A stretch of DNA of 64,000 nucleotides from Candidatus Curtissbacteria bacterium RIFCSPLOWO2_02_41_11 (GTDB lineage Bacteria; Patescibacteriota; Microgenomatia; Curtissbacterales; GWA2-41-24), in contig MFBU01000014.1 of assembly GCA_001775055.1 (NCBI GenBank), positions 120,535 through 184,534 on the forward strand, given 5' to 3'. Positions 3,684 to 48,944 of the stretch are shown piece after piece. The notes under the pieces are model-generated. The model saw only the letters and a program-made list of their open reading frames with translations. It had not been told where the DNA came from and did not search any database. Every line of letters starts with the position of its first letter. Position 1 is the first letter of the stretch. A program made the translations under genes and the position numbers.

Positions 3684-4701
3684 TTCACCAACCCGCATTG
3701 AAATTTCCTACAAGACGGTTATCTTTACTGTGGCTGTTTTGGTCGGGCTTTGGTTTATCATCCAAATTCGCCAAATTATTATCTTAGTCTTCTTATCAAT
3801 TATTTTACTTTCGGCGCTGCTTCGACCAGTCGAATGGCTAACAGCAAGACGTATCCCCAGAGTCTTAAGCGTTCTTTTAGTTTATATTATTCTTATCGCT
3901 CTTATTGCCTTTATCGTTGGTATTATTATTCCACCACTGGTTGCTCAAACTTCCGATTTTATCTCCAAACTACCGCAGATCGTTTCAACGATCAATAACT
4001 TTCTTGTTTTTAATAAAATACCAATAGAAAATCTTTCAAGTGTTATTGCCGGGCAAGTTCAACAAATTGCCCAAAATTTCCTAAGTATCTTCAAAGCCAT
4101 TTTCTCAAGTATTTTCTTATTAATTACAATCTTTGTCTTCACTTTTTATCTTCTTTTGGAATGGAAAAGTTTTGTGAAGTTAATTGGCTCACCCTTTTCT
4201 GGCAGACAAGAAAAAAAAGTAACTAGTATTATTGCTAAAGTTGAAACTGGTTTAGGAGGTTGGGTAAGAGGCCAAATCACTTTATCTTTAGTTGTAGGCA
4301 TCTTGACATTTATCGGTCTGACTATCTTACAAATCCCTTTTGCCCTGCCTTTGGCCTTAGTTGCTGGGATTCTTGAAATTGTGCCAATTATCGGACCGAT
4401 CATTTCAGCAATTCCTGCTATTCTTGTCGGCTTAACAATTTCCCCCATTGTGGCATTGGCAGTGGCTGCCCTGTTTTTTATAGTTCAACAGCTTGAGAAT
4501 CATTTAATTGTACCGATGGTTATGTCCAAAGTTGTCGGATTGCAGCCTCCGGTAGTCATCATTACTCTTTTAATTGGTGCCAAGCTTGCCGGCATCGGCG
4601 GGGCCTTTTTAGCTATCCCCACCGTTGTTGTTGCCAGAATTATTTTCAAAGAATTATTAACTGAAGATCAAAAACTCGAGGATGGGTTGAAAGAAGAATA
4701 G
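3670..4701 (+). CDS. AI-2E family transporter (UPF0118/PerM-like permease)
   Basis: Eight TM helices. C-terminal QQLENHLIVPMVMSKVVGLQPPVVIITLLIGAKLAGIGGAFLAIPTVVV is typical of the AI-2E/YhhT family. Confidence 0.7.
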   Translation: MSQDNSPTRIEISYKTVIFTVAVLVGLWFIIQIRQIIILVFLSIILLSALLRPVEWLTARRIPRVLSVLLVYIILIALIAFIVGIIIPPLVAQTSDFISKLPQIVSTINNFLVFNKIPIENLSSVIAGQVQQIAQNFLSIFKAIFSSIFLLITIFVFTFYLLLEWKSFVKLIGSPFSGRQEKKVTSIIAKVETGLGGWVRGQITLSLVVGILTFIGLTILQIPFALPLALVAGILEIVPIIGPIISAIPAILVGLTISPIVALAVAALFFIVQQLENHLIVPMVMSKVVGLQPPVVIITLLIGAKLAGIGGAFLAIPTVVVARIIFKELLTEDQKLEDGLKEE

Positions 4702-6037: not shown

Positions 6038-7390
6038 ATGAAGAAAGCAACTATTTTGGTAATTGACGGTGGCGGCCGGGGAGCGGTTCTTGTCGATAAA
6101 TATTGCCAAAGTCGCCATGTCACACAAGTCTTGGCAGTCCCTGGCAATGACCTGATGAAAAAGCTCTCTCAAAAGCCTGTCAATATTTTCCCCAAAATTA
6201 AGACAACTGACATTTTATCAATAATCAAAATTTGCCAAAGCGAAAAAGTCGATCTAGTTGATGTTGTTCAGGACGATGCTGTTGCGAAAGGAGTAGTCGA
6301 TGCTTTGCAAAATGAGGGAATTCGCGTCTTTGGTCCCACTAAGGCAGCTTCCCAAATCGAATGGGATAAAGCCTGGGCCCGCAATTTTATGAAAAAATTT
6401 AAAATCCCAGCTCCGGAATTTAAAATCTGCAAATCATCTCAAGAAGGCATCGATTTCATCAAATCGCAAAAACGAGGCGAGTGGTTTATCAAAACCTCAG
6501 GACTGGCTGCTGGCAAAGGTGCTTTATATGCTAAAGATAACCATCAAGCAATTCAAAAAATCAATCAAATGAAAGATTTTGGCAAGGCAGGCCAAACTTA
6601 TCTTATCGAAAAGTGTCTTGTCGGTGAAGAATTTTCCTCCTTTGCCATCGTTGACGGATCAAACTTTGTTCTTCTTGGCCATGCCCAAGACCACAAGCCG
6701 GTTTTTGACGGAGATTTAGGACCAAATACCGGAGGCATGGGTTGCTCGTCACCGCCAATGGCCATCACCAAAAAAATCGAAAAACAAATCAAAAACATTT
6801 TTAAAAAAACAACTGAAGGCTTGGTTAAAATTGGTCGTTCTTACAGGGGTATCCTTTACCTTGGTGGAATGATCGATAAAAACGGTATGGTTTATGTTAT
6901 TGAGTTTAATGCCCGCTGGGGCGATCCCGAGGCACAGGTGATTATTCCTTCAATCAAAAATGATTTTTACGAACTGGCAAATCAAGTTCTTGACGGGGGG
7001 ATTAAAAAAATTAAAATAAAGAAAGATAATTCTTATCGAATTGCAGTTACCGCTGCTTCTCGCGGTTATCCGTCTGATTATTCAAAAGTGATCGGTAAAC
7101 AAATTTTCGGTCTGGATCATCTTCTTAATCAATTCACTTCCTCTCGTCATCCTGAGAGAAGCGAAGGATCTTATAAAATCTTTGGCGCTGGTGTAAAAAT
7201 CCATAATAGTAAATATCTGGTAAACGGCGGTAGATTATTTTATGTGACGACAGCTGGCAAAAATGTTGCACAAGCCAGAAAAATAGCCTATAATGCTCTT
7301 TCTTTAGTCAATGTCGAAAGCGACAATTTACATTACCGCACCGACATCGGCTGGCGAGATTTAGAAAGATTCTATGGAAAGACATTTTAA
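6038..7390 (+). CDS. purD: phosphoribosylamine--glycine ligase (GAR synthetase)
   Basis: MKKATILVIDGGGRGAVL...AVPGN is the PurD N-terminus. It has the ATP-grasp core and a PurD C-domain. Contains an in-frame GC-rich insertion encoding SRHPERSEGS (see findings). Confidence 0.9.
   Translation: MKKATILVIDGGGRGAVLVDKYCQSRHVTQVLAVPGNDLMKKLSQKPVNIFPKIKTTDILSIIKICQSEKVDLVDVVQDDAVAKGVVDALQNEGIRVFGPTKAASQIEWDKAWARNFMKKFKIPAPEFKICKSSQEGIDFIKSQKRGEWFIKTSGLAAGKGALYAKDNHQAIQKINQMKDFGKAGQTYLIEKCLVGEEFSSFAIVDGSNFVLLGHAQDHKPVFDGDLGPNTGGMGCSSPPMAITKKIEKQIKNIFKKTTEGLVKIGRSYRGILYLGGMIDKNGMVYVIEFNARWGDPEAQVIIPSIKNDFYELANQVLDGGIKKIKIKKDNSYRIAVTAASRGYPSDYSKVIGKQIFGLDHLLNQFTSSRHPERSEGSYKIFGAGVKIHNSKYLVNGGRLFYVTTAGKNVAQARKIAYNALSLVNVESDNLHYRTDIGWRDLERFYGKTF
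7148..7170. repeat. GC-rich short element with core CCTGAG-N5-CGAAGGA, in-frame in purD
   Basis: tcatCCTGAGagaagCGAAGGAtc. Encodes RHPERSEGS, absent from canonical PurD alignments. Confidence 0.6.
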
Positions 7391-9528: not shown

Positions 9529-12369
9529 ATGATTTATGAAGTAAGAATTGCTTCCAAAGAAAAAACTGACCCCAAGGGACAGAATTTACTGGCCGAAATT
9601 GAAAGAACGCTTGGTGTAAAAACCATTAAAAACATCCGTACTGCCAAAATTTATCGACTTGAGGGAATAAGCAAGTCCGACGCCAAAATATTTACCCAAA
9701 AAGTTTTATTTGAGCCAATAGATCAAAAGATGACTTTTAATCAGCCGATTTTTAAAGGTACTGATCATTTAGTTGAAGTTGCTTATAAACCCGGTGTAAT
9801 GAATCCGGAGGCTGGGTCACTTTTAAAGTCAGCAAAGGATATTGGTATTGATCTTTTAGCTGCAGATTCTTCTTGGGAGTACGCATTTTTTGGCAAATTT
9901 GCAAAAGATCAACTTCAGGCAATCATCAAAAGGCTTTTAGTTAATGAAACAGTCGAGCATGTCGTCGAAAAATCTCCTAAGACTCTTTTGATTTCTGGCC
10001 ATGCCGGTAAGATCCAAACTATTCCAATTAGAGGGCTTGATGACCGCCAGCTAATGGAACTTTCTCAAGATAAGCTCTTTTTAAATCTTGAAGAGATGAA
10101 AGTTATCCAAAATTATTTTGCAAAAATCGACCGCGATCCAACTGATTGCGAAGTTGAGGTTCTTGCCCAAACATGGAGTGAGCATTGCGTCCACAAAACT
10201 TTTAAAGCTAAGTTGATAATCGATGGTAAGGCCAAAAAGCCCTTGATTGAGAGAATTAAAGAAACAGCTAAGTTTAGTCAAAAATTCATTGTCTCAGCCT
10301 TTGTAGATAATTCCGGAGTGATTGATTTTTATAATGGTTGGGCAGTAAGCGGCAAAGTCGAAACCCACAATTCGCCTTCGGCCATTGAACCCTATGGTGG
10401 TGCTATGACCGGATCTGGCGGAGTTTTTCGCGATATTTTAGGTACCGGTCAAGGAGCCAAACCGATTATCTCAACCGACATTTTTTGTTTTGCACCGCCG
10501 AGTCTTCCTGCAAAGGATCTTCCCCCAGGTTGTCTGCCACCAGACTATCTTCTTCGCAAAGTTGTAGCCGGCGTGCGCGATTACGGTAATCGTGTTGGTA
10601 TTCCCACCAACAATGGTTCTATCCATTTTCATAACGATTTTCGAGCTAAACCAACTGTAGCTGTTGGATCATATGGTCTAATTCCCAAAAAACAAGCTAA
10701 CAAACGACGGCCCAAAAAGGGCGATTTAATTTTAACTATCGGCGGGGCAACCGGCCGAGACGGTATTCACGGTGCTACTTTTTCATCCGGTGAAATGACC
10801 GATAGAACCATTGAAGTCTCCGGCTCGGCGGTTCAAATCGGCAATGCCATTGAGGAAAAAAGAATTATCGACTGTGTTTTAGCTCTTCGTCAACAAAATC
10901 TGTTTCGTACTTTAACCGATTGCGGTGCCGGTGGATATTCATCGGCTATTGGCGAAATGGGCCAAAAAATTGGCGCTCGTGTTTATCTTGAAAAAGTTCC
11001 TCTCAAATACAGCGGCCTTTCGCCTTGGGAAATTTTTCTCTCTGAATCTCAGGAACGCATGGTTTTGGCAATTGCCCCAAAAAATCTTAAAAAAGTTCTA
11101 AAAATCTGCAAACTTTACAATGTGCAAAGTGCGATTTTGGGCAAGTTTGACGGTTCAAAAAGAATAAAAGTTACTTATGATGATCAATTGGTTTGTGACC
11201 TTTCTATGCAATTTTTGCATCATGGTTTGCCCCAGAGGCGAATGGTTGGCAAGACAATTGTCAAAATGATTCCAGATAAGCCCCCGAAACAACCAAAGGA
11301 CTTATCAGCCGTTTGGCTTAAAGTCATGAGTCACGGCAATGTGTGTTCCAAAGAGCCGATTGTAAGACAGTATGATCATAATGTTCAAGGAACCAATGCT
11401 TTACATCCCTTAGGTGGAGTTAACTTTGATGCGCCAAATGACGGAGCAGTTGTCAGACCGATTCTTAACAAACCATACGGCTTAGTAGTCACCCATGGTC
11501 TTAACCCGATTCTTAATCGAATTGATCCATATTGGGGTAGCATTTGGGCAACCTGCGAGGCAGTCTCCAATTTTGTGGCCATAGGCGGCGACCTTAAAAA
11601 TGCAGCCTTAATTGATAACTTTATTTGGCCATTTCCGGACGAAGAATCCTTAGCCGATTTAGATAAATCTGTCGATGCCTGTTGTGATATGGCCAAACTT
11701 TTGGATATGCCTTTTATCTCTGGTAAAGACAGTTTGTCGAGTACGTACCGTTATCCCGATGGTCGAGTTTTAAAAATCCCGCCGGTTCTTTTAATTTCTG
11801 TCTTTGGCAAAATCCCAGATGTTAAAAAAACTACAAGTTCTGATTTTAAGAAAGTTGGTTCAACAATAGTTCTTATCGGCAAACCGGATCTTAAAAATCT
11901 CGGCGGCTCGGTCTATTTTGATGTTGCCGGCGGTCAATCCTCATCCGTTCCTAAGATTAATCTTAAATCGCAAAAGGCAGTTTTAACATCAATTACCGCC
12001 GGAATCAGAAGTGGTCAAATCCTTGCCTGTCATGATATTTCCGAAGGCGGCCTGGCAGCAGCGATGGCCGAAATGTGTTTTGGAAGCGACTGCGGTGCAG
12101 AAATTGACTTGTCCTCCATAGCTTTAGCGAAGGAGGATCATCCTGATTTTATTCTCTTTTCCGAAACCGCCGGCACATTTTTGATAGAAGTTGCAAATCC
12201 AATAGTTGCCAAAAAACTTTTCGCCAAAGTTCCCCACGTGATTATTGGACAGACTATCAAAGAAAGATCAATCCGCGTAAATCTAGGTCCCAAAAATCTG
12301 TGTAATCTGCGCCTAGATCAACTCAAACAAGCCTGGCAGAAGCCGATGAAGGAGATATTCCATGATTAA
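9529..12369 (+). CDS. purL: phosphoribosylformylglycinamidine synthase, PurS-like domain fused to PurL (FGAM synthetase II)
   Basis: N-terminal 80 aa (IYEVRIASKEKTDPKGQNLLAEIERTLGVKTIKNIRTAKIYRLEG) match PurS (YKV.V.VK.SVLDPQG...L...G...V.R.GK..L). WSEHCVHKTFK, ETHNSPSAIEPYGGAMTGSGGVFRDILG, GRDGIHGATFSS and DISEGGL are PurL (small type) motifs. Confidence 0.9.
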   Translation: MIYEVRIASKEKTDPKGQNLLAEIERTLGVKTIKNIRTAKIYRLEGISKSDAKIFTQKVLFEPIDQKMTFNQPIFKGTDHLVEVAYKPGVMNPEAGSLLKSAKDIGIDLLAADSSWEYAFFGKFAKDQLQAIIKRLLVNETVEHVVEKSPKTLLISGHAGKIQTIPIRGLDDRQLMELSQDKLFLNLEEMKVIQNYFAKIDRDPTDCEVEVLAQTWSEHCVHKTFKAKLIIDGKAKKPLIERIKETAKFSQKFIVSAFVDNSGVIDFYNGWAVSGKVETHNSPSAIEPYGGAMTGSGGVFRDILGTGQGAKPIISTDIFCFAPPSLPAKDLPPGCLPPDYLLRKVVAGVRDYGNRVGIPTNNGSIHFHNDFRAKPTVAVGSYGLIPKKQANKRRPKKGDLILTIGGATGRDGIHGATFSSGEMTDRTIEVSGSAVQIGNAIEEKRIIDCVLALRQQNLFRTLTDCGAGGYSSAIGEMGQKIGARVYLEKVPLKYSGLSPWEIFLSESQERMVLAIAPKNLKKVLKICKLYNVQSAILGKFDGSKRIKVTYDDQLVCDLSMQFLHHGLPQRRMVGKTIVKMIPDKPPKQPKDLSAVWLKVMSHGNVCSKEPIVRQYDHNVQGTNALHPLGGVNFDAPNDGAVVRPILNKPYGLVVTHGLNPILNRIDPYWGSIWATCEAVSNFVAIGGDLKNAALIDNFIWPFPDEESLADLDKSVDACCDMAKLLDMPFISGKDSLSSTYRYPDGRVLKIPPVLLISVFGKIPDVKKTTSSDFKKVGSTIVLIGKPDLKNLGGSVYFDVAGGQSSSVPKINLKSQKAVLTSITAGIRSGQILACHDISEGGLAAAMAEMCFGSDCGAEIDLSSIALAKEDHPDFILFSETAGTFLIEVANPIVAKKLFAKVPHVIIGQTIKERSIRVNLGPKNLCNLRLDQLKQAWQKPMKEIFHD

Positions 12370-15023: not shown

Positions 15024-15308
15024 TTGGACTATAATAATTTGTTAGTGAACGAAATTGAAAAGCTCAAAGAAGAAATCGAAAAGATTAAAGAACGCAATCG
15101 GCGGGTCGAAAAAGATAAGACTTGGGAAACTAGTCTTACTCGCCGTATCGCTATCGCCACCTCAACTTACATCTTAATAGCAATCTTCCTTATTATAATT
15201 GGCGTTGAAAAACCGTTTCTTGCCGCTATTATTCCAGCTGCTGCCTACCTTATCTCCACCGCATCATTGGAATTCTTAAGAAGATGGTGGCTTAAAAGCA
15301 AACAATGA
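15024..15308 (+). CDS. small membrane protein with N-terminal coiled-coil
   Basis: 94 aa with charged heptad-like N-terminus (EIEKLKEEIEKIKERNRR) followed by two TM helices. Overlaps the next gene (ATGA). Confidence 0.3.
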   Translation: MDYNNLLVNEIEKLKEEIEKIKERNRRVEKDKTWETSLTRRIAIATSTYILIAIFLIIIGVEKPFLAAIIPAAAYLISTASLEFLRRWWLKSKQ

Positions 15309-15907
15309 AATTATTTTTTGATCTGGAAACTATTCCGGCGCCGGAAGAATTGCGCCAAGTGGTCATCGAGGCAGAGCGCAAAAAGGCACGCAATCGAGAA
15401 ATCGCTAGTGACAACGAAGCTCTTTACCGCGCCAGCACCTTTTCTGGTGATTTTGGCCGAATTTTCTGCATCGGTTATGCACAAGATGATACACCCGCTC
15501 AAGTGATTAGCGGTCATGAGACCGAAATTCTTAAAAAATGGTGGCAGATTGCCCAAAGCGCCAATGTATTTATTGGTCACAACATTATTGATTTTGATAT
15601 TCCTTTTCTTTATAAACGCTCAATTGTTCACAAAATAAAACCATCGCAACTTCTGCCAATTAAAAAATTTCCAACCGAAAACATTTTTGATACGGCGCGC
15701 GAATGGAGCCGTTGGGATAATTATTCCCAAACAAGTCTTCACAATCTGGCGCTTGCTTTAGACTTGCCTTCTTCCAAAGACAAAATGGACGGCTCGCAAG
15801 TTTATGATTTTTATTTTAAAAGGCGTTTTGAGGACATATACACTTACTGCAAAAAAGATGTTGAACTCACCAGAAAAATCTACAAGCGAATGCTTTTTAT
15901 TGCTTAA
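15305..15907 (+). CDS. DnaQ-like / PolB-exonuclease-like 3'-5' exonuclease (RNase H-like fold)
   Basis: Exo I FFDLETIP (DxE). Exo II IGHNIIDFDIPFL. Exo III YCKKDVELTRKIY (YxxxD). This is the arrangement of the predicted 3'-5' exonuclease family related to PolB exo domains. Confidence 0.5.
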   Translation: MKLFFDLETIPAPEELRQVVIEAERKKARNREIASDNEALYRASTFSGDFGRIFCIGYAQDDTPAQVISGHETEILKKWWQIAQSANVFIGHNIIDFDIPFLYKRSIVHKIKPSQLLPIKKFPTENIFDTAREWSRWDNYSQTSLHNLALALDLPSSKDKMDGSQVYDFYFKRRFEDIYTYCKKDVELTRKIYKRMLFIA

Positions 15908-16120: not shown

Positions 16121-17134
16121 ATGGCGGCATCAAAAGGCTATAAAATCGCCACTTTAGGTTCTCACTCTGCTCTCCAAATCCTAAAAGGCGCAAAAGACGA
16201 AGGTTTTAAGACAATTTGTATCGTCACGCCTGATCGCCACCATCTCTACAGCCGATTTGCCTTCATCAATAAAATTATTAAGATTCCGACTTTTGCCGAT
16301 TTTCCCAAAATCGAAAAACAATTAATTGCCGATAACGCAATCGTTATTCCTCATGGTTCTTTTGTAGCTTATTTAGGTCTTAGCGAAAATAAAAATATGA
16401 AGGTTCCCTATTTTGGCAATAAGCAAGTTTTGGATTGGGAATCAGACAGAATGAAGCAAAGGGATTGGCTAATAGAAGCCAGCGTGCCGGTACCAAAAAG
16501 ATTTAAAAGGCAAGAGAAAATCGACAGACCAGTGATTATTAAATCGTATGGAGCCTCAGGCGGCCATGGTTATTTCTTCGCAAAAAACCAAAAGGAATTT
16601 GCATCCCGAATCAAAAATTTTAAAGCGAAAGATTTTATTATCCAGGAATATGTCATCGGAGTACCACTTTATATCCATTATTTTTATTCACCTCTTAACA
16701 AAAAATTAGAAATACTTTCGATCGATAAACGCTATGAAACTAATGTTGACTCCTTAGGGCGAATTCCTTCGCAGAATCAGCAAGGTCTTGGCATTGAACC
16801 CTCATTTGTGGTTGTTGGCAATATTCCCCTAACACTTCGCGAGTCACTTCTTTCCGAAGCATTTGAAATGGGCGAAAGAGTTGTTGCAACTTCAAAAAAA
16901 ATAATGGATGGGGGAATCTGGGGGCCGTTTTGTCTTGAAACGATTATTACACCAGAGCAGAAGTTTTCGATTATTGAAATTTCCTGTCGAATTGTTGCCG
17001 GAACCAATTTATTTATCGACAGTTCTCCATATGCCTCTCTATACTATGAAAAACCTGTTTCAACCGGCAGAAGAATCGCCATGGAGATCAAAGAGGCTAT
17101 TAAAAGAAACAAACTTGCCAGGATCTTAAACTAA
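16121..17134 (+). CDS. purP: 5-formaminoimidazole-4-carboxamide ribonucleotide synthetase (archaeal-type, formate-dependent)
   Basis: IATLGSHSALQILKGAKDEGFKTICI, IPHGSFVAY, FGN..L.WESDR, ATP-grasp core and IHYFYSPL. Matches PurP of methanogens along its whole length (about 340 aa). Confidence 0.85.
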   Translation: MAASKGYKIATLGSHSALQILKGAKDEGFKTICIVTPDRHHLYSRFAFINKIIKIPTFADFPKIEKQLIADNAIVIPHGSFVAYLGLSENKNMKVPYFGNKQVLDWESDRMKQRDWLIEASVPVPKRFKRQEKIDRPVIIKSYGASGGHGYFFAKNQKEFASRIKNFKAKDFIIQEYVIGVPLYIHYFYSPLNKKLEILSIDKRYETNVDSLGRIPSQNQQGLGIEPSFVVVGNIPLTLRESLLSEAFEMGERVVATSKKIMDGGIWGPFCLETIITPEQKFSIIEISCRIVAGTNLFIDSSPYASLYYEKPVSTGRRIAMEIKEAIKRNKLARILN

Positions 17135-18414
17135 TGAAAAATACCTCACTTAAAAGTTGGCAAGGCATTACCTGTGTGATTGGTCTTGACTGGGGTGATT
17201 CAGGTAAGGGGCGGTTGATTGATGATCTGTCCTCCCGCGCCGATATCGTTGCCCGCTATAGCGGTGGTTCAAATACCGGGCACACCGTCAAAAATAAATA
17301 CGGAAAATTTGCCATGCACATAATGCCCTCGGGTATTTTTAATCAAAAAGCTCAATGTTTAATCGGTCGGGGCGTTGCTTGCGATTTGGAATCTTTAATC
17401 GAAGATGAAATGGCCCAGCTCCAAAAAGCCGCTATCTCTTGGAAGAATTTAATTATTGATGAGCAGGCATCATTGACGATGCCTTGGCATAAACTTCGTG
17501 ATGGCTTACGCGAAGAATTCCGTTTAAAAAAAATTGGTACTACCAAGCGGGGTGTTGGCCCAACTTACGCCGACAGGATTGAAAGAGTCGGTTTAAGAAT
17601 TAAAGACCTCATGTCCTCTGATTTTAAAGACAAGCTTTTTGAAGAAGTCAAAATTCAGAATAAATTTTTTAATCTTAAACTTAACCCCACTCAAATCTAT
17701 AGAAGGTATCTAAAATTTTCCAAATTATTAAAACCTTACGTTGGCCAAACTATTCCGATTGTCAAAAATGCCCAAAATATGGGTAAAAATATTTTATTTG
17801 AAGGTACTCAAGGATCTCTTCTAGACGTCGATTTCGGAACTTACCCCTTTGTCACCTCCACTAATATTGGTGTTATCGGAATTTGGCGCAGTTTCAACCT
17901 TCATCCATCCGAGATTAACCACGTAATTGGGATATCCAAAGCCTACTCAACTAGAGTTGGCGCTGGTCCACAGCCGACAAAACTGGATGGAGAAAAAAGA
18001 CAAATCATTATCGAAAAAGGTCAGGAAATCGGTACAACTTCAGGCAGAACCCGCGACCCTGGATGGCTCGACTTAGTTATTATTAGAGCAGCAGCCGAGT
18101 TTAACAAACTCACTGCTTTGGCAATTACCAAACTTGATGTTTTGACTGGATTTAAAAAGATCAAAGTTTGTACTTCTTATAAAATCAATGACAAAACTGT
18201 TGAATATCTTTCCGGAGATGCCCAATTTTTGGCAAAGTGTCAACCAGTTTATAAAGAAGTTGATGGCTGGAGGGAAGATTTGTCAAAAATTCGCCAGTTT
18301 AAAAAGCTCCCTAAAAATGCCCAAAATTATATTAAGATAATTGAAAAATTGGTTGATGTTCCGGTAAAGTTTATATCAGTTGGGCCAAATAGGGGAGAAG
18401 TGATATACCTATGA
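17134..18414 (+). CDS. purA: adenylosuccinate synthetase
   Basis: GLDWGDSGKGRLID (GxQWGDEGKGK P-loop), GGSNTGHTV and GTTKRGVGPTYADR are PurA motifs. Confidence 0.9.
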   Translation: MKNTSLKSWQGITCVIGLDWGDSGKGRLIDDLSSRADIVARYSGGSNTGHTVKNKYGKFAMHIMPSGIFNQKAQCLIGRGVACDLESLIEDEMAQLQKAAISWKNLIIDEQASLTMPWHKLRDGLREEFRLKKIGTTKRGVGPTYADRIERVGLRIKDLMSSDFKDKLFEEVKIQNKFFNLKLNPTQIYRRYLKFSKLLKPYVGQTIPIVKNAQNMGKNILFEGTQGSLLDVDFGTYPFVTSTNIGVIGIWRSFNLHPSEINHVIGISKAYSTRVGAGPQPTKLDGEKRQIIIEKGQEIGTTSGRTRDPGWLDLVIIRAAAEFNKLTALAITKLDVLTGFKKIKVCTSYKINDKTVEYLSGDAQFLAKCQPVYKEVDGWREDLSKIRQFKKLPKNAQNYIKIIEKLVDVPVKFISVGPNRGEVIYL

Positions 18415-19589
18415 AAATCAAAAATCAACCCGTCCTTGACCGAGTCGAGACGAGGTCGGGAAAATCAAAAATCAAAAGTTATCAGGACCTTACAATCGCA
18501 ACAGTTGGGTCTCACTCTGCCCTTGATATTTGTCGCGGTGCCAAAGATGAAGGTTTTAAAACATTGGTTGTTGTTGAGAAAGGACGTGATCAAACCTATG
18601 TCAACTATTTTAAATCAGCCCGTCCTTCGACAAGCTCAGGACCTTCGGGTTGCGTCGATGAAGTTGTATATGTTGATAAATTTAAAGACATACTTTTGCC
18701 AAAAATCCAAAAAATCTTAAAAAATAAAAATTGTATTTTCATCCCTCACCGTTCATTTGAAGTCTATGTTAGCGATTATGATGCCATTGAAGATAAATTT
18801 GATGTCCCCATTTTTGGCAACCGCTATCTTTTGCGCTTTGAGGAAAGAAACGAAAAACCTAATCAGTACGATCTTTTAGAAAAGGCCGAAATAAGATATC
18901 CAAAAATATTTAAAGACCCTAAAGATATTAACACCATTGTTATAGTTAAAGTAAATGAAAAAGAAAGAAGGTTCGAAAGAGCTTTTTTCTTAGCAACTTC
19001 TCATGCGCGGTATAAATATGAGTCAGAAAGGCTAATCAAGGGTGGGGTTATTACTAAGATAGACCTTAATGCCGCTATTATCGAAGAATTTATTTTAGGT
19101 GTTCAAGTAAATTTTAACTTCTTCTATTCACCAATTAATCGTCGATTAGAGTTAGTTGGAACAGACACCAGAAGACAGACAGATTTAGAAGGAATTTTAA
19201 GGTTGCCTATTAACCAACAAGAGGAACTCTTTGAACTTAAAAGAATATATCCTCAATATGAAGAAGCAGGTCATATAGCAGTTACCACCTTGGAATCCAT
19301 GCTTGAGCCGGCTTTTGAAATTGGAGAAAAATTTGTAAAAGCCACAAAAGAAATGAAACCACCTGGTGTCATCGGTCCCTTTGGACTCCAATCGGTAATT
19401 ACCCCAGGCCCCCCAAAGAAAGAAATTGTCGTTTTTGACGTTTCACCCAGAATGCCCGGTTCGCCGGGGATTTCTAGCACCCCTTACAGCGGCTATCTTT
19501 ATGGGAAGAATATCAGCATGGGCAGGCGGGTTGCCATGGAAATTAAAAAAGCAGTCGCCATAAAGAGACTTTCAAAAATAGTCACATGA
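18411..19589 (+). CDS. purP: second PurP-family ATP-grasp paralog (FAICAR synthetase-like)
   Basis: IATVGSHSALDICRGAKDEGFKTLVVV, IPHRSFEVY, FGNRYLLRFEER, FYSPINRRLE, GPFGLQSV. Carries an extra GC-rich in-frame insert (SARPSTSSGPSGCVDEV) absent from paralog 1. Confidence 0.8.
   Translation: MKIKNQPVLDRVETRSGKSKIKSYQDLTIATVGSHSALDICRGAKDEGFKTLVVVEKGRDQTYVNYFKSARPSTSSGPSGCVDEVVYVDKFKDILLPKIQKILKNKNCIFIPHRSFEVYVSDYDAIEDKFDVPIFGNRYLLRFEERNEKPNQYDLLEKAEIRYPKIFKDPKDINTIVIVKVNEKERRFERAFFLATSHARYKYESERLIKGGVITKIDLNAAIIEEFILGVQVNFNFFYSPINRRLELVGTDTRRQTDLEGILRLPINQQEELFELKRIYPQYEEAGHIAVTTLESMLEPAFEIGEKFVKATKEMKPPGVIGPFGLQSVITPGPPKKEIVVFDVSPRMPGSPGISSTPYSGYLYGKNISMGRRVAMEIKKAVAIKRLSKIVT
18620..18660. 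repeat. same-family GC-rich element (reverse orientation: CGAAGG-t-CCTGAG-cttgt-CGAAGGA), in-frame in purP paralog 2
   Basis: Plus strand gTCCTTCGacaagCTCAGGaCCTTCGggttgcgtcg. Encodes SARPSTSSGPSGCVDEV, absent from paralog 1. Confidence 0.6.
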
Positions 19590-20986
19590 CGAATAACGAT
19601 ATACCTTTAAACCAGTTAACTGCGATTAGTCCCCTAGACGGGCGCTACCGTGACAAAACTAAGGAGCTTGCCGAATATGTTTCTGAGTACGCTTTAATTT
19701 CTACCAGATTTGAAATAGAGGCTAAATATTTGGTTGCTCTTTCAGATATTAAAGTTATCAGAAATTTAACCGCCAAAGAGAAAACAAAACTCAACTTGCT
19801 TGGTTCAAAGATTACCTTAGCTGATGCCGTGATGGTTAAGAAAATTGAGGAGGAAACCAGACACGATGTCAAAGCGCTGGAGCGGGCATTTCGCCAAATG
19901 GTTAAAGGCACAAGTCTAGCGGATATTACGGAAATGATTCACTTTGGGTTAACTTCCGAGGATGTTAACAATCTTGCTTATCGTCTGATGTTAAGAAGAG
20001 CAACTGATAATGTTTGTGTTCTGATTTTAGATGAATTGATCGATCAGCTCACAGAGCGGGCACAAAAATATCTCTCCATCCCAATGCTGGCACGGACTCA
20101 TGGGCAAGCGGCTGTACCAACAACCGTCGGTAAAGAACTGGCTGTTTTTGCCACAAGGTTAAATTGGCAAGTTTTAAAACTTAAAGAATATCAACTTACG
20201 GGAAAATTAACCGGTGCGGTTGGTAATTTTAACGCCCTACAACTTACTCACTCTACTGTTGATTGGCTGAAATTTTCACAAGAGTTCATCAAGCAGTTTA
20301 GTTTTAAGCCAAATTTGGTTACCACTCAAATAAACCCCTATGAGGATATAATTGAATTTTTTCAAATTTACACGCGAATTAATAGTATTATCATTGATTT
20401 TGCTCAAGATATCTGGCGCTATATTAGTGACGATTGGTTTGTCCAGGAGGTTAAAAAAGGAGAAATCGGTTCATCAACCATGCCTCAAAAAGTAAATCCG
20501 ATTGATTTTGAAAACGCTGAGGGTAATCTGACTTTAGCCAACGGAATTTTGGAAACTCTTTGTCGAAAGCTGGCTATTTCCCGTTTGCAGCGAGATCTAA
20601 CAGATAGCACTACTATTCGCAATATTGGTTCTGCCTTAGGTTACTCGCTTATCGGTTATAAAAGTATTTTAAGTGGCCTTGCCAGAATCCGCCCGAATGT
20701 CGAAAAACTTGAGAAAGATTTAAATCGCGATTGGTCAATTCTCGCAGAGGCTGTCCAAACTCTACTTCGAAAAGCCAAAGTATCTGATCCTTACTCACTT
20801 ATTTCCTCATTAACCCGCGGTGAACATATCAACGAAGAGAAGTGGCAAAAATGGATCAGGAGTTTGCCAATTAAAAACGACCTCAAAAGTACTCTTGCCA
20901 AACTAATGCCCTCGACTTATATTGGACTTGCCGAAGAAATTACCAAAAGAGCTGCCAAAGAAATTAAAGCATCAAGACATAAATGA
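19586..20986 (+). CDS. purB: adenylosuccinate lyase
   Basis: SPLDGRYRDKT N-terminal motif. Fumarate-lyase family signature region GSSTMPQKVNPIDFEN. Confidence 0.9.
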   Translation: MTNNDIPLNQLTAISPLDGRYRDKTKELAEYVSEYALISTRFEIEAKYLVALSDIKVIRNLTAKEKTKLNLLGSKITLADAVMVKKIEEETRHDVKALERAFRQMVKGTSLADITEMIHFGLTSEDVNNLAYRLMLRRATDNVCVLILDELIDQLTERAQKYLSIPMLARTHGQAAVPTTVGKELAVFATRLNWQVLKLKEYQLTGKLTGAVGNFNALQLTHSTVDWLKFSQEFIKQFSFKPNLVTTQINPYEDIIEFFQIYTRINSIIIDFAQDIWRYISDDWFVQEVKKGEIGSSTMPQKVNPIDFENAEGNLTLANGILETLCRKLAISRLQRDLTDSTTIRNIGSALGYSLIGYKSILSGLARIRPNVEKLEKDLNRDWSILAEAVQTLLRKAKVSDPYSLISSLTRGEHINEEKWQKWIRSLPIKNDLKSTLAKLMPSTYIGLAEEITKRAAKEIKASRHK

Positions 20987-22478: not shown

Positions 22479-22484
22479 TGCCTC

Positions 22485-24026
22485 ATGGTTGCAGTCATTA
22501 ACTTCGGTGGGCAGTACGCTCATCTTATTGCCAGAAGAATTAGGGAACTTGGCGTAAAAAGTGAACTGATTAGTCCCGATAGTAATATTTCTACTGTAAA
22601 AAAATTAGCCCCTCAAGCTCTAATTTTATCTGGGAGTCCTTTCTCCTGCTATGAAAAAAATGCCCCAAAGGTAGATCTTAAAATCTATGAGCTTGGTCTG
22701 CCGATACTTGGTATTTGCTATGGTCAGCAATTGATGGCCGTACAACTTGGTGGTCAAGTTTCGTCCCATTCCTCAAAACAATTTGGCAGGGAACTTCTGA
22801 AAATTACAACGTCGGCCCTATTTGAGAATCTTAAAAGTTCGCAAACGGTTTGGTTCTCTCATGGCGATCAAGTCGACAGACTTCCCACAGGTTTTAAAAT
22901 AATTGCTTCAAGTAAAAATGCCAAGATTGCCGGCATGGAAGATTCACAAAGGCGATTTTATGGAATCCAATTTCATCCTGAGGTAACCCATACACCGAAT
23001 GGTGAGGTAATCCTATCGAACTTTCTTTTTAAAATTGCCAAGGCCAAAAAAGATTGGAATCTAAAATCTCTCAAGGAAGACATAGTTAATAACTTAATAA
23101 AGAAAATTAAAAATCAAAAAGTAGTGATGGCTCTGTCCGGCGGAGTTGATTCATTGGTTGCCGCTACCTTGTTGAAGGAAGCAATCGGCGATAATTTGTT
23201 TTTAGTTTTTATCGATACTGGGCTACTTCGCAAATATGATCTTGAAGATCTGGAAAATGTTGTTAAAAGTGTCAATTTCAAAAACCTGCCTGCCGGCAGG
23301 CAGGGATTCAGAATAGTTAACTCGCAAAGTCGTTTTCTTAAAATTCTCCAACGCGTCAATGATCCTGAAGAAAAACGAAAAGTTATTGCCAAACTTTATT
23401 TTGCGATCCTAGAGGAAGAGGCCAAAAAAATCGGCAATGTGACTTTTTTGGCCCAAGGCACAATTTATCCAGATCGAATCGAATCAGCAAAGCCTTCCAA
23501 ACATGCCGACAAAATCAAAAGCCATCACAATGTTACCTTGCCGAAAGGTCTTAAATTAAAAATAATTGAGCCTTTGGGGGAATTTTACAAAGACGAGGTC
23601 AGAAAATTGGGTAAAATCTTAAGAATTCCACAAGAATTCTTAAACCGCCATCCGTTTCCAGGACCTGGCCTAGCGATTAGGATTTTAGGAGAAGTGACTG
23701 AAGATCGACTCAAGATTCTAAGGGAGGCTGATGCTATCTTTATTGAGGAGTTAAAGAAAGCAGGTATATATAATAAGGTAGGACAAGCATTGGCTGCGCT
23801 TTTACCTGTTAAATCGGTTGGCGTAATGGGTGACGCACGTACTTATTCATATATCATCGCTTTAAGATCGGTAGATACTGTCGATTTTATGACCGCCGAC
23901 TGGTCAAAAATTCCAAGCGATGTCATGGAGAAAGTCTCATCACGAATTGTCAATGAAGTACGAGGAGTCAACCGTGTCGTCTACGATATCACTCAAAAAC
24001 CTCCGGCCACCATTGAATATGAGTAA
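22485..24026 (+). CDS. guaA: GMP synthase (glutamine-hydrolysing)
   Basis: GATase domain with ICYGQQ (catalytic Cys). PP-loop ALSGGVDS. C-terminal GMP synthase dimerisation domain. Contains a 27-nt GC-rich palindromic insert encoding NLPAGRQG. Confidence 0.9.
   Translation: MVAVINFGGQYAHLIARRIRELGVKSELISPDSNISTVKKLAPQALILSGSPFSCYEKNAPKVDLKIYELGLPILGICYGQQLMAVQLGGQVSSHSSKQFGRELLKITTSALFENLKSSQTVWFSHGDQVDRLPTGFKIIASSKNAKIAGMEDSQRRFYGIQFHPEVTHTPNGEVILSNFLFKIAKAKKDWNLKSLKEDIVNNLIKKIKNQKVVMALSGGVDSLVAATLLKEAIGDNLFLVFIDTGLLRKYDLEDLENVVKSVNFKNLPAGRQGFRIVNSQSRFLKILQRVNDPEEKRKVIAKLYFAILEEEAKKIGNVTFLAQGTIYPDRIESAKPSKHADKIKSHHNVTLPKGLKLKIIEPLGEFYKDEVRKLGKILRIPQEFLNRHPFPGPGLAIRILGEVTEDRLKILREADAIFIEELKKAGIYNKVGQALAALLPVKSVGVMGDARTYSYIIALRSVDTVDFMTADWSKIPSDVMEKVSSRIVNEVRGVNRVVYDITQKPPATIEYE
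23279..23305. repeat. 27-nt GC-rich element with perfect 20-bp palindrome CCTGCCTGCCGGCAGGCAGG, inserted in-frame in guaA (copy 1 of 2)
   Basis: caaaaacctgcctgccggcaggcaggg. An identical 27-mer is at 48863-48889. Confidence 0.9.
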
Positions 24027-47111: not shown

Positions 47112-47778
47112 GGTAGTCGTTGCTATCTTTGCTCACCCGGATGATGAGGCCTTTGGTCCATCGGGTACCATTGCCAAACTTGCAAAAAACCACAATGTTT
47201 ATGTTCTTTGTGCAACGCGCGGCGAAGCGGGTTTACCAGCCGAAGCTCAAGCGAAGGCGGACGGCAATCTTAAAAATATCGGCAAGGTGCGAGAAAAAGA
47301 ACTGCGTTGTTCTGCCCAAATTTTAGGAGTTAAAAAAGTTTATTTTTTGGGTTTTGTTGACGGTACTCTTTCCAATGCCTTGTATCATCTCCTGGCTGCA
47401 AGAATCAAGCAAAAGCTCAAGCTTTTAAAACCCCAAACCATCATAACTTTTGAACCCCGGGGAATTTCCGGCCACATTGATCATATCACCGTATCTCTAG
47501 CAACCACCTATGTTTTTTACCACCTTCCCTTTGTCAAAAAATTACTCTACTTCTGCATATCGGAGGAAGAAAGAAAATCGGTTAAAGACTACTTTATCTA
47601 CTTTCCCCCGGGTTACCCAAAAAGCCAAATTGACCAAGTAGTCGATGTTGCCGATGTTTGGGAGACAAAAATTCAAGCAATGATGTGCCACAAATCGCAA
47701 ATTACCGATGCCAGAAGAGTTCTTAAAATACGCCAAAAATTCCCCAAAGTTGAACATTTTTTAGAACTTGCCAAGTGA
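47086..47778 (+). CDS. PIG-L/LmbE-family N-acetylglucosaminyl deacetylase
   Basis: VVAIFAHPDDEAFGPSGTIAKL is the LmbE family signature (AHPDDE). ITFEPRGISGHIDH (His-rich metal site). Confidence 0.7.
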   Translation: MMPSKKQNRVVVAIFAHPDDEAFGPSGTIAKLAKNHNVYVLCATRGEAGLPAEAQAKADGNLKNIGKVREKELRCSAQILGVKKVYFLGFVDGTLSNALYHLLAARIKQKLKLLKPQTIITFEPRGISGHIDHITVSLATTYVFYHLPFVKKLLYFCISEEERKSVKDYFIYFPPGYPKSQIDQVVDVADVWETKIQAMMCHKSQITDARRVLKIRQKFPKVEHFLELAK

Positions 47779-48944
47779 AACTTTACAATTCCTACTCTGA
47801 AAAAAAAGAAACTCTTGACCTTTCACATCCAATCGGCCTTTATGTTTGTGGAATTACTCCTTATGACACAACACACTTAGGTCACGCTTTCACTTTTTTG
47901 GTCTATGATGTCTTGGTCAGATATTTAAGATTTTTGGGAAACAAAGTCACCTATGTCCAAAATGTTACAGACATTGATGATGACATTTTAATTAAGGCCA
48001 AATCCCTTGGTACAACTTGGCAAGCATTAATCCAAGCCGAGACGAAAAAACATTTCAAAAACATGGCTGGTCTTAACGCTCTAGCCCCGGACATTATCCC
48101 TTACGCCACAGGTCATATTAAAGAAATGATTAGTATTATCAAGGTTTTAATCGCCAGAGGTTTAGCCTATGAAAAAAATGGCTCTGTATATTTTAAAATT
48201 AGAAGCGACAAGAATTTTGGCAAACTTTCCAAACTCGGCTATCGGGCAATGCTTCAAATTGCCAATGACCGCGGCAATTTTCCACTTGATCCCAACAAGC
48301 GCGACCCTTTGGATTTTGTCCTTTGGCAAAAACACAAAGACGGTGAGCCCTCTTGGGATTCACCATGGGGCAGGGGCCGACCCGGTTGGCATGTTGAATG
48401 CTCGGCAATGGCTATGAAATATTTAGGTCCAACAATCACTATTCATGGTGGGGGAGAGGATTTAATTTTTCCTCATCATGAGGCCGAAATTGCTCAAAGT
48501 GAAAACTACACAAAGCAGAAATTCGTCAAAATTTGGATGCACACCGGCATGGTTTATTGTGACCAAAAGAAAATGAGCAAAAGCCTCGGCAACATGGTCT
48601 TTGTCTGCGATCTTTTAAAAATTTACTCTGCCAACACCTTAAGACTCTATCTTCTTTCTCACCACTGGCGCCAATCTTGGAATTATAATGAAAAAAAGCT
48701 AGAAGAATCGCAGAAGACAGCCAAAATTTTAGAAAAATCAGCCACCAAATCAAGTATGGATGATCGAGAAGTTCAAAAAAATCTACCGGTCTTTTTTACA
48801 GCTCTTGATGATGATTTAAATATTCCCCAAGCTATCGAGGTTTTGGTCAGTTTTGCCAAAAGCAAAAACCTGCCTGCCGGCAGGCAGGGGCAGGCAGGGG
48901 AGTTAATTACCAAATGCGGCCAAATTCTCGGGTTAAAATTTTAG
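47775..48944 (+). CDS. cysS: cysteinyl-tRNA synthetase (short form, 389 aa)
   Basis: YVCGITPYDTTHLGHAFT (HIGH). KMSKSLGN (KMSKS). Contains the same 27-nt GC-rich palindrome as guaA near the 3' end. Confidence 0.85.
   Translation: MKLYNSYSEKKETLDLSHPIGLYVCGITPYDTTHLGHAFTFLVYDVLVRYLRFLGNKVTYVQNVTDIDDDILIKAKSLGTTWQALIQAETKKHFKNMAGLNALAPDIIPYATGHIKEMISIIKVLIARGLAYEKNGSVYFKIRSDKNFGKLSKLGYRAMLQIANDRGNFPLDPNKRDPLDFVLWQKHKDGEPSWDSPWGRGRPGWHVECSAMAMKYLGPTITIHGGGEDLIFPHHEAEIAQSENYTKQKFVKIWMHTGMVYCDQKKMSKSLGNMVFVCDLLKIYSANTLRLYLLSHHWRQSWNYNEKKLEESQKTAKILEKSATKSSMDDREVQKNLPVFFTALDDDLNIPQAIEVLVSFAKSKNLPAGRQGQAGELITKCGQILGLKF
48863..48900. repeat. same 27-nt palindromic element plus an extra CAGGCAGGGG unit, inserted in-frame in cysS (copy 2 of 2)
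   Basis: caaaaacctgcctgccggcaggcaggggcaggcagggg. Encodes KNLPAGRQGQAGE. Confidence 0.9.

Follow-up and report, generated by a model that had tools for sequence, protein, structure and literature searches.

The stretch of DNA analysed here (the window) comprises 64,000 nucleotides (nt) of Candidatus Curtissbacteria bacterium RIFCSPLOWO2_02_41_11, contig MFBU01000014.1, positions 120,535 to 184,534, and carries among other genes purD, purL and two paralogues of purP. Within purD and the second purP paralogue (purP2) lie two short hairpin sequences, referred to below as the type A and the type B unit, which together with a possible third site in purL are the subject of this study (Table 1). A preliminary description had claimed that purD and purP2 share a gapped motif in opposite orientations, and an exact search for CCTGAGNNNNNCGAAGG (CCTGAG-N5-CGAAGG) indeed gave two matches in all 64 kb, one on the plus strand (7151-7167) and one on the minus strand (18624-18640). 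In 100 shuffles of the window that preserved its dinucleotides the motif did not occur once (0 expected), loosening the motif added window matches at chance level only, and half-site searches of the window produced no further convincing copies. The strings on which the claim was based were largely quoted as they stand: in purD, tcatCCTGAGagaagCGAAGGAtc and its in-frame peptide RHPERSEGS are correct, with a start given as 7148 for a string that occupies 7147-7170, and in purP2 the minus-strand string CGAAGGtCCTGAGcttgtCGAAGGAc and the encoded peptide SARPSTSSGPSG are both right, the peptide being absent from purP paralogue 1 (16121-17134). The local peaks in G+C content that had been described are real but modest, at 0.50 for the purD unit versus 0.40 for purD and 0.64 for the purP2 unit versus 0.38 for purP2, in a window with 38.8% G+C overall.

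Table 1. Positions of the host genes, hairpin units and unit-derived segments in the window, and of 5'-half arrays at other loci
Feature	Position	Strand	Basis or remark
purD (phosphoribosylamine-glycine ligase), host of type A	6038..7390	+	Open reading frame; PDB homologues E 1e-80; Pfam GARS_N/A/C on orthologues
Probable decayed 21-nt 5'-half copy plus pyrimidine-rich spacer, CTTAATCAATTCACTTCCTCT, peptide LNQFTSS	7124..7144	+	Inferred from orthologue alignment
Type A hairpin unit in purD, CGTC-ATCCT-GAGAGAAGCGA-AGGAT-CTT	7145..7172	+	Match to family consensus T/C-GTC-A-N4-GAGCGNAGCGA-N4'-T-CTC
Parts of the type A unit	tag 7145-7148; 5' arm 7149-7153; loop 7154-7164; 3' arm 7165-7169; tail 7170-7172	+	
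Putative purL remnant, AGCGAAGGA-GGATCATCCTGA, peptide LAKEDHPD	12126-12146 (in purL, 9529-12369)		Resembles type A 3' half followed by 5' half
purP2 (FAICAR synthetase paralogue 2), host of type B	18411..19589	+	Open reading frame; PDB 2r7k E 1e-69
Type B hairpin unit in purP2, CCCGAAG-GTCCT-GAGCTTGTCGA-AGGAC-GGGCT	18617..18649	-	Core hairpin 18622-18642
5'-half array, L176	~4000-4240	-	
5'-half array, L253	269-470		
5'-half arrays, L149, L288 and L205			

Both window units have the same build, namely a 5-bp stem (ATCCT/AGGAT in purD, GTCCT/AGGAC in purP2) around an 11-nt GAG-N5-CGA loop, and their folding z-scores, between -0.9 and -1.75, are unremarkable. Comparison with homologues showed that each copy is an in-frame insertion of 9-12 residues without counterpart in most of the 120 orthologues examined for each of PurD and PurP2. 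The PurD segment faces a gap of 11-12 residues in three solved PurD structures, and the PurP2 segment a gap of 12 residues in the PurP structure 2r7k. Most of the 120 PurD orthologues have a short 'empty' loop (e.g. GLEKILRL-KKVKVFGAG), and approximately 25 have inserts of variable length at exactly that position; at the DNA level, the conserved purD anchors are 18-36 nt (mostly 24-30 nt) apart in 38 related loci, and their spacing rises to 45 nt in L005, to 63 nt in the window and to 111 nt in L001. The common empty state of PurP2 is YFKS-x-G-xLGCVDEV, with PSTSSG, PSINSG or PSTHSVRSG variants, or long nested forms, in many other orthologues; L002 has an orthologous type B copy at the same site (41/46 nt identical) and the L397 site is empty. 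The inserts are thus lineage-specific, as had been anticipated, with the same codon position empty in most orthologues of either protein. In an AlphaFold model of the window PurD (mean predicted local distance difference test score, pLDDT, 88.8) the insert forms a loop between the helix 359-367 and the strand 379-383, and residues 367-375 have a pLDDT below 50. Both inserts appear to have landed in permissive surface loops, where they are carried as translated passengers, probably without a role in enzyme function.

Further copies were found well outside the window. A strict search for the stem-and-loop build given above returned 13 copies in 564 kb (the window plus related loci of the candidate phyla radiation) versus approximately 0.7 in shuffles. 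Scanning viral contigs for TCCTGAG-N5-CGAAGGA gave at least 128 matches, and scanning one genome per GTDB species for GTCA-N4-GAGCGNAGCGA-N4-TC gave at least 165 type A copies in at least 120 stretches, the counts from these public scans being lower bounds and not a random sample. Among the listed matches the hosts belong to the Chloroflexota, Acidobacteriota, Bacteroidota, Planctomycetota, Nitrospirota, Bacillota, Pseudomonadota, Verrucomicrobiota, Gemmatimonadota, Omnitrophota, Caldisericota, candidate-phyla-radiation lineages and others. Units are also present in isolates (Hymenobacter, Mucilaginibacter, Planktothrix, Gloeothece PCC 7822, Granulicella and Novosphingobium) and on isolate plasmids, some of these copies lying within annotated genes (MmeI and PglX in Planktothrix). 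That the two window sites represent one repeat family, as first proposed, is borne out by the N5 of the listed viral matches, which is far from random (CCTGT 26, CTTGT 16, CGAAG 11, CGCAG 8, CGGAG 5 and CAAAG 4). Type A can be written tGTCA-stem-GAGCGNAGCGA-stem'-TCTC and type B stem-GAGCYTGTCGA-stem', the latter often within a longer stem, and because hybrids with a type A flank and a type B loop occur, we regard both types as one superfamily. A chance likeness of two variable loops, or an assembly artefact, would fit the presence of only two copies in the window, but is a practically negligible explanation given that no shuffle held two matches, that hundreds of covarying copies exist elsewhere, including finished isolate genomes and plasmids, and that the same protein is found in independent assemblies (Candidatus Curtissbacteria protein UT12_C0002G0041 matches the window PurP2 at 100% identity).

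The layout of the superfamily, over approximately 21-28 nt, is a (T/C)GTC tag, a covarying stem of 4-5 bp, GA, an apical hairpin (canonically GCGNAGC), GA, the second stem arm and CTC. Since the conserved part runs from T-GTCA at the 5' end to TC-TC at the 3' end, the unit measures approximately 28 nt. The search pattern left N4 and N4' free, and in 140 of the 165 listed units these form 4/4 Watson-Crick pairs, with at least 10 different stems. Across 100 distinct units, 97.6% of cells are paired and 82 cells are compensatory, spread over all four free pairs; none of 500 shuffles paired as well, and slid registers came nowhere near. The hairpin potential proposed for testing at the outset is supported by this covariation. 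The second stem pair is U-A in 90/100 and C-G in 8/100 units, and the first is fixed by the search pattern and hence uninformative. The type B stem covaries as well, with a first free pair of C-G in 107 cases, G-C in 28 and A-T in 11, and in many type B copies elsewhere the stem is preceded by CCTCG or CGTTCG. Among the 165 listed type A units GTC follows a T in 130 and a C in 24, and the 3' tail is CTC in 68, CTG in 26, CTT (as in the window purD copy) in 20, CTA in 16 and CCA in 7.

The pairing of a unit consists of five Watson-Crick pairs, then GA/GA, then a G-C and a C-G pair closing a 3-nt GNA, which amounts to nine stacked positions if G.A pairs are counted. The bracketing GA...GA dinucleotides would form tandem sheared G.A pairs, and we infer a fold of tandem G.A pairs plus mini-hairpin for d(ATCCTGAGCGNAGCGAAGGAT), in the place of which the window has the variant GAGAGAAGCGA. 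Although GCGNAGC itself was demanded by the pattern, its N was free, and among the 165 listed units it is A in 63, C in 56, T in 24 and G in 22; GNA apices are independently enriched in the TCCTGAG-N5-CGAAGGA scan, in the form of CGAAG, CGCAG, CGGAG and CGTAG. The canonical type A apex is exactly the mini-hairpin DNA d(GCGNAGC) of Hirao and colleagues, in which any GNA loop closed by GC/CG is extraordinarily stable (review PMC13037366). The mini-hairpin is, however, a physicochemical motif of phage and plasmid origins and not a described dispersed repeat, and type B apices (GCYTGTC) and the window purD copy (GAGAAGC) lie outside it.

With a looser scaffold search the constant part proved to be TGTCA-N4-GA...GA-N4'-TCTC, with an apex that varies in length and sequence and is often itself of the form stem-GA-...-GA-stem, i.e. 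nested. In many genomes a complete unit is preceded by a tandem array of its 5' half. Such arrays (Table 1) contain up to seven 5' halves, each TGTCATYCTGARC plus a C-rich spacer of 4-8 nt with a period of 19-24 nt, and end in one complete unit; as no matching array of 3' halves accompanies them, simple nesting fails to explain their origin. A separate case is L186 (3563-4217), a Bacteroidaceae metagenome-assembled genome with seven type A units at an exact period of 105 nt in a tandem repeat, inside a long open reading frame (ORF) of the opposite strand that may be a repeat protein built round the unit.

The peptides named in the preliminary description as by-products of a short repeat in metagenome-derived proteins could be traced to the consensus units, type A giving CHPERSEGS in frame 0 and type B giving SFDKLRT, VLRQAQD and RPSTSSG in its reverse frames. 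HPERSEGS, VILSEAKNL, PSTSSG, FDKLRT, LRQAQD and the like are therefore translations of one hairpin repeat and not protein motifs, which explains odd, low-complexity-looking segments in metagenome-predicted proteins as well as spurious ORFs. In the window, the predicted peptides across the inserts are SSRHPERSEGSYK in purD and ARPSTSSGPSG in purP2, where the type B unit is read on the plus strand. It is very improbable that these peptides are functional additions selected as protein, for instance as an interaction or regulatory loop. The inserts do persist in many lineages and the residues RHPE..GS recur, but the recurrence is accounted for by the DNA consensus, the site varies from 0 to approximately 37 extra residues of unrelated sequence, the model shows a loop of low confidence here, and the same DNA unit is read elsewhere in other frames, as VILSGAKNL in purL and VILSKAKNL at a PurP2 N-terminus. 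A further frame of purP2 contains a 'shadow' ORF of 94-102 residues, at 18436-18720 (+) in the window and 20320-20628 (+) in L002, in which the type B unit reads VLRQAQDL; it is the type of spurious ORF that carries such peptides into protein databases.

Yeast mitochondrial GC clusters are short GC-rich mobile hairpins in AT-rich genomes, coding regions included, and mitochondrial 'byp' translational-bypass elements were reportedly described by Lang et al. in 2014. The present units resemble both as short, relatively GC-rich hairpins invading AT-rich genomes including their coding regions, and differ from byps, which the ribosome skips so that frame is not needed, in being always in frame and stop-free, and in having bacterial hosts. 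That the window inserts remain untranslated, through ribosome bypass as in byps or T4 gene 60 or through removal from the RNA, is in our view extremely improbable. Their G+C content relative to that of their hosts would suit it, as would the TCT codons on both sides of the purD unit; against it, 12 of 12 PurD inserts with known DNA sequence and every PurP2 insert examined keep the reading frame, lack stops and do not exceed 141 nt, in a survey that sampled intact predicted proteins only and would miss out-of-frame cases. Expansions by half-repeats proceed, moreover, in steps of 21 nt, and a synonymous change has occurred within the unit.

The orthologous sites have a history that is best seen at the DNA level. 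The outer frame, CGTCATCCTGA...GGATCT, is common to twelve PurD orthologues and keeps one codon phase in all of them, and their inserts are all multiples of 3 nt and free of stop codons. The apex is canonical in L005 and L395, contains a nested type B hairpin in L389 and L393 and other hairpins in L390 and L394, and shows up to three levels of nesting, with an inverted type A core, in L001, L391 and L396; the insert of L392 is 141 nt long. Upstream of the purD unit lie one to three copies of the 21-nt 5' half; these are plain to see in L393, and in L001, L389 and the window they have decayed. The counterpart of the window segment is intact in L393 (CGTCATCCTGATCCCTTCACT) and reads CGTAATCCTGTTTCTTCTCTC in L001 and GACTATTCTGCTCCTTCTCTT in L389, and L005 and L395, which lack it, are shorter by 18 nt. 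The stem occurs as ATCC/GGAT (HP..GS) or ATTC/GAAT (HS..ES), a difference that is compensatory in the DNA and alters two amino acids. In its loop the window purD copy has AGA where canonical copies, L005 and L395 have CGC (CGN canonically), a synonymous change of an arginine codon; as it breaks the GCGNAGC core, this copy now evolves as coding sequence.

The PurP2 site behaves likewise, with a nested and tandem version in L398. In purL, one 26-nt stretch of an intact type A unit recurs without a difference at the same position of the divergent loci L006 and L025, where it reads VILSGAKNL, and L389 has at this position a different palindromic insert (DTPGV...EDTPGV); the window purL segment in Table 1 may be a decayed remnant and hence a third hot spot. 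Because the same codon position is nested, half-duplicated, compensated or empty in different orthologues, we conclude that a colonised site is repeatedly reworked. In addition, PurP2 N-termini (P0130, P0194, P0136, P0147 and P0151) carry differing repeat-derived extensions where the purA stop meets the purP2 start, among them VILSKAKNL in P0130, which is type A in frame 1, and VIPAPSRGGSAFGPKAGIH in P0194.

Position-specific homing, i.e. independent and repeated insertion at the same codon of purD, purP2 and purL in place of one old insertion that was reworked or lost, has to be weighed here and is a serious possibility, if a doubtful one. On a neighbour-joining tree of PurD the filled and empty states are interleaved, and sister pairs differ (P0012/P0013, P0009/P0022 and P0010/P0029); the empty state of P0007 looks ancestral and not derived by deletion, both stem variants occur at the purD site, and L006 and L025 have the same unit stretch in purL despite unrelated flanks. 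However, the tree is poorly resolved, no common target sequence is visible at the three sites, all PurD inserts have the same outer frame and codon phase, as predicted by common descent, and a targeting of resident copies by new ones would cover the same data without gene-specific homing.

Within genomes the family is mainly intergenic, with 29% of units inside long ORFs versus 82% of random positions. Solo intergenic units are distributed over the four orientations of flanking genes as 22, 17, 18 and 16, i.e. without preference, and pairs less than 150 nt apart are convergent in 66 cases versus 16, 12 and 8 in the other orientations; crude ORF heuristics served as gene calls throughout. Inverted pairs have variable spacers and the same variant on both arms, and start with TGTCA and finish with TGACA; by eye, no target duplication was seen in the flanks of 13 inverted type A pairs. 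Clustering of the ORFs within 2.5 kb of the 165 listed units revealed no recurrent family (largest cluster 6/120 loci) and therefore no candidate transposase. A miniature inverted-repeat transposable element of a DDE transposase was rejected, the fixed-length target-site duplication expected of it not being seen at the 13 pairs. At one locus, L389 (Curtissbacteria), a 225-residue haloacid dehalogenase (HAD)-hydrolase gene separates purQ from purM, two genes that adjoin or overlap in four related genomes, and is flanked on each side by an intergenic convergent type A pair (15074-15131 and 15815-15880); this arrangement may be cassette-like or may reflect plain colonization of new intergenic DNA.

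The absence of orientation bias relative to flanking genes leaves readings as terminators or sense RNAs unsupported, and it also bears on the idea that the inserts are RNA structures selected in the pur mRNAs, through stability, pausing or binding of RNase or protein, and translated incidentally. Such structures would account for an outer stem kept at third-codon positions and for the HP..GS/HS..ES changes, which alter amino acids and preserve pairing, and repetitive extragenic palindromes (REPs) in general are proposed in PMC3733652 as RNA elements. Nevertheless, we hold this explanation to be improbable: the two window copies point opposite ways with respect to their genes, only one strand forms the G.A/GNA core, the window z-scores are unremarkable, the purD copy has lost its core and Rfam gave no match. 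Searching Rfam 15 at the gathering threshold returned only tRNAs in the window and 17 unit-rich loci, and a permissive Rfam search only generic long-hairpin (miRNA precursor) matches. Likenesses to the hammerhead, K-turn, box C/D, attC and Tn7 ends were dropped by eye, the defining nucleotides or bulge being absent.

Full-text literature searches for the peptides and for the DNA and RNA strings of the unit found primers and unrelated matches only, and a concept search on repeats of the candidate phyla radiation found nothing relevant. The closest kind described so far is the group of CGTC-tagged REPs published in 2013 by Di Nocera, De Gregorio and Rocco (BMC Genomics 14:522, PMC3733652). They are described there as having a tag of CGTC, frequently TGTC or CCTC, that stays unpaired, a stem of 8-9 bp that opens with A-T and T-A pairs, a loop of 4-5 nt and a short unpaired tail, mostly CCA; they are mainly intergenic with predominant inverted dimers, intragenic copies are documented, and no dedicated transposase is known. 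The superfamily is there reported from five phyla and takes in Neisseria dRS3 and the Rickettsia palindromic elements (RPEs) RPE-4 and RPE-6. As described, they share with our units the tag (the window purD unit opens with CGTC at 7145-7148), the A/T start of the stem, a short unpaired 3' tail, the intergenic bias with some intragenic copies, the inverted dimers, the lack of a flanking transposase and the occurrence in several phyla. In contrast, our units mostly have a TGTC tag and usually a CTC/CTN tail, their five Watson-Crick pairs with a GA/GA bracket and a GCGNAGC tip may depart from the 8-9 bp stem and 4-5 nt loop, their host range is wider than five phyla and includes the candidate phyla radiation, and nested apical insertions and 5'-half arrays do not feature in the running text of that paper. 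An intermediate form is offered by alphaproteobacterial copies, CGTCATTGCGAGCG(A/C)AGCGAAGCAATCCA, with a CGTC tag, a CCA tail and the same GAGCG(N)AGCGA core as type A. The sequence CGTCATTGCGAGCGAAGCGAAGCAATCCA is present at least 40 times on a Novosphingobium megaplasmid and also in other Alphaproteobacteria, again as a convergent pair; the Novosphingobium copies have one extra A in the loop and were found with a looser pattern. The unit strings were not found in the supplementary files of PMC3733652.

Two other groups of bacterial repeats invite comparison. RPEs were reportedly presented by Ogata et al. in 2000 as 'selfish DNA in protein-coding genes', and RPE-1 is approximately 100-150 bp long and genus-specific. 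The likeness, which is by description and not by sequence comparison, lies in palindromic repeats situated in frame in conserved genes of a reduced genome and translated as extra surface segments with function spared, and in-frame, stop-free palindromic repeats in conserved genes are indeed what we find at the purD, purP2 and purL sites, their translation being predicted; the present units, however, measure 21-28 nt and are shared across phyla. GTAG REPs and REPINs (REP doublets) are mobilized by REP-associated tyrosine (HUH) transposases (RAYTs). These too are hairpins of 20-40 nt, single or in inverted pairs with variable spacers, without target duplication and with an intergenic preference, but their tag is GTAG as opposed to (T/C)GTC, REPIN families are lineage-specific whereas the core here is shared across phyla, and no RAYT-like or other recurrent gene was found beside the units in a search of their neighbourhoods within 2.5 kb.

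Given these findings, we consider it quite probable that both motifs are copies of a REP-like hairpin repeat, in or immediately next to the CGTC/TGTC-tagged REP superfamily, that lie in permissive loops of purine enzymes and are translated as 9-12 extra residues. The published relative, the mainly intergenic habit of the family and the fact that the window purD hairpin is already decaying go beyond the preliminary description. Such a repeat would spread at the DNA level. Most plausibly, some enzyme acting in trans would handle it as a single-stranded hairpin, for which RAYTs acting on GTAG REPs and Piv/IS110-type enzymes acting on dRS3 may serve as models. Resident copies may then attract new copies at the apex or be overwritten by them, which would yield hot spots in purD, purP2 and purL that are nested, half-duplicated, fresh or empty without any gene-specific targeting.

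Several points weigh against this interpretation. The mobility of types A and B is deduced from distribution alone, no enzyme, excision product or polymorphism having been observed. Kinship with the CGTC REPs was set by the descriptions given in the published text, with none of the numbered families (CGTC-1 to CGTC-4) assigned; the usual tail is CTC and not CCA, and the type B copy of the window has no recognizable tag. In the purD inserts third-codon positions are conserved and changes are compensatory, so that selection may still maintain the hairpin for some function; the neighbour-joining tree behind the pattern of gain and loss is weak at 60-75% identity, and the location and orientation statistics inherit the crudeness of the ORF heuristics.

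If the REP-like reading holds, elements of REP type, catalogued mainly in Proteobacteria, reach the reduced genomes of the candidate phyla radiation, where they are found inside essential biosynthetic genes as RPEs are in Rickettsia. The identical 11-nt core spread so widely, together with free covariation of the stem and the reworking of sites, also raises the question of which enzyme, if any, handles CGTC/TGTC REPs, which the authors of PMC3733652 left open. As a bolder and rather unlikely extension, the repeat may be a self-targeting single-stranded DNA hairpin whose GA-bracketed apex is the preferred landing site, active across many phyla via an enzyme that acts on it and, in candidate-phyla-radiation genomes, a recurrent generator of in-frame loop expansions in purD, purP and purL. 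'Russian-doll' nesting, 5'-half arrays and the repeated overwriting of colonized sites would follow from it.

The proposal that this genome contains several families of in-frame insertions was also upheld, as further hairpin families were found in the window. One is an insert unrelated to types A and B, CCCGTCCTTGACCGAGTCGAGACGAGGTCGG (peptide QPVLDRVETRSG), at 18429-18459. It lies just behind the start codon of purP2, between two copies of a 16-nt direct repeat, GAAAATCAAAAATCAA (18413-18428 and 18460-18475), and is missing from the L002 orthologue. A copy identical at 34/35 nt occurs in the same frame in purL of L389 (13090-13124), with an A-rich duplication alongside, and the window purL has a 17-residue gap at that point. 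The insert looks recently mobile, with a target duplication of approximately 16 nt, and was not found in viral contigs. A scan of the window for strong short inverted repeats added only a palindrome read as LPAGRQG, presumably the 'palindromic element' of the preliminary description. The window has two copies of this palindrome, CCTGCCTGCCGGCAGGCAGG, which is perfect over 20 nt and for which 0 copies are expected, at 23285-23304 and 48869-48888, both times after AAAA and in frame in long ORFs (22479-24023 and 47754-48941), where it reads KNLPAGRQG; the copy at 48869-48888 is accompanied by an extra half-repeat, GGCAGGCAGGGG.

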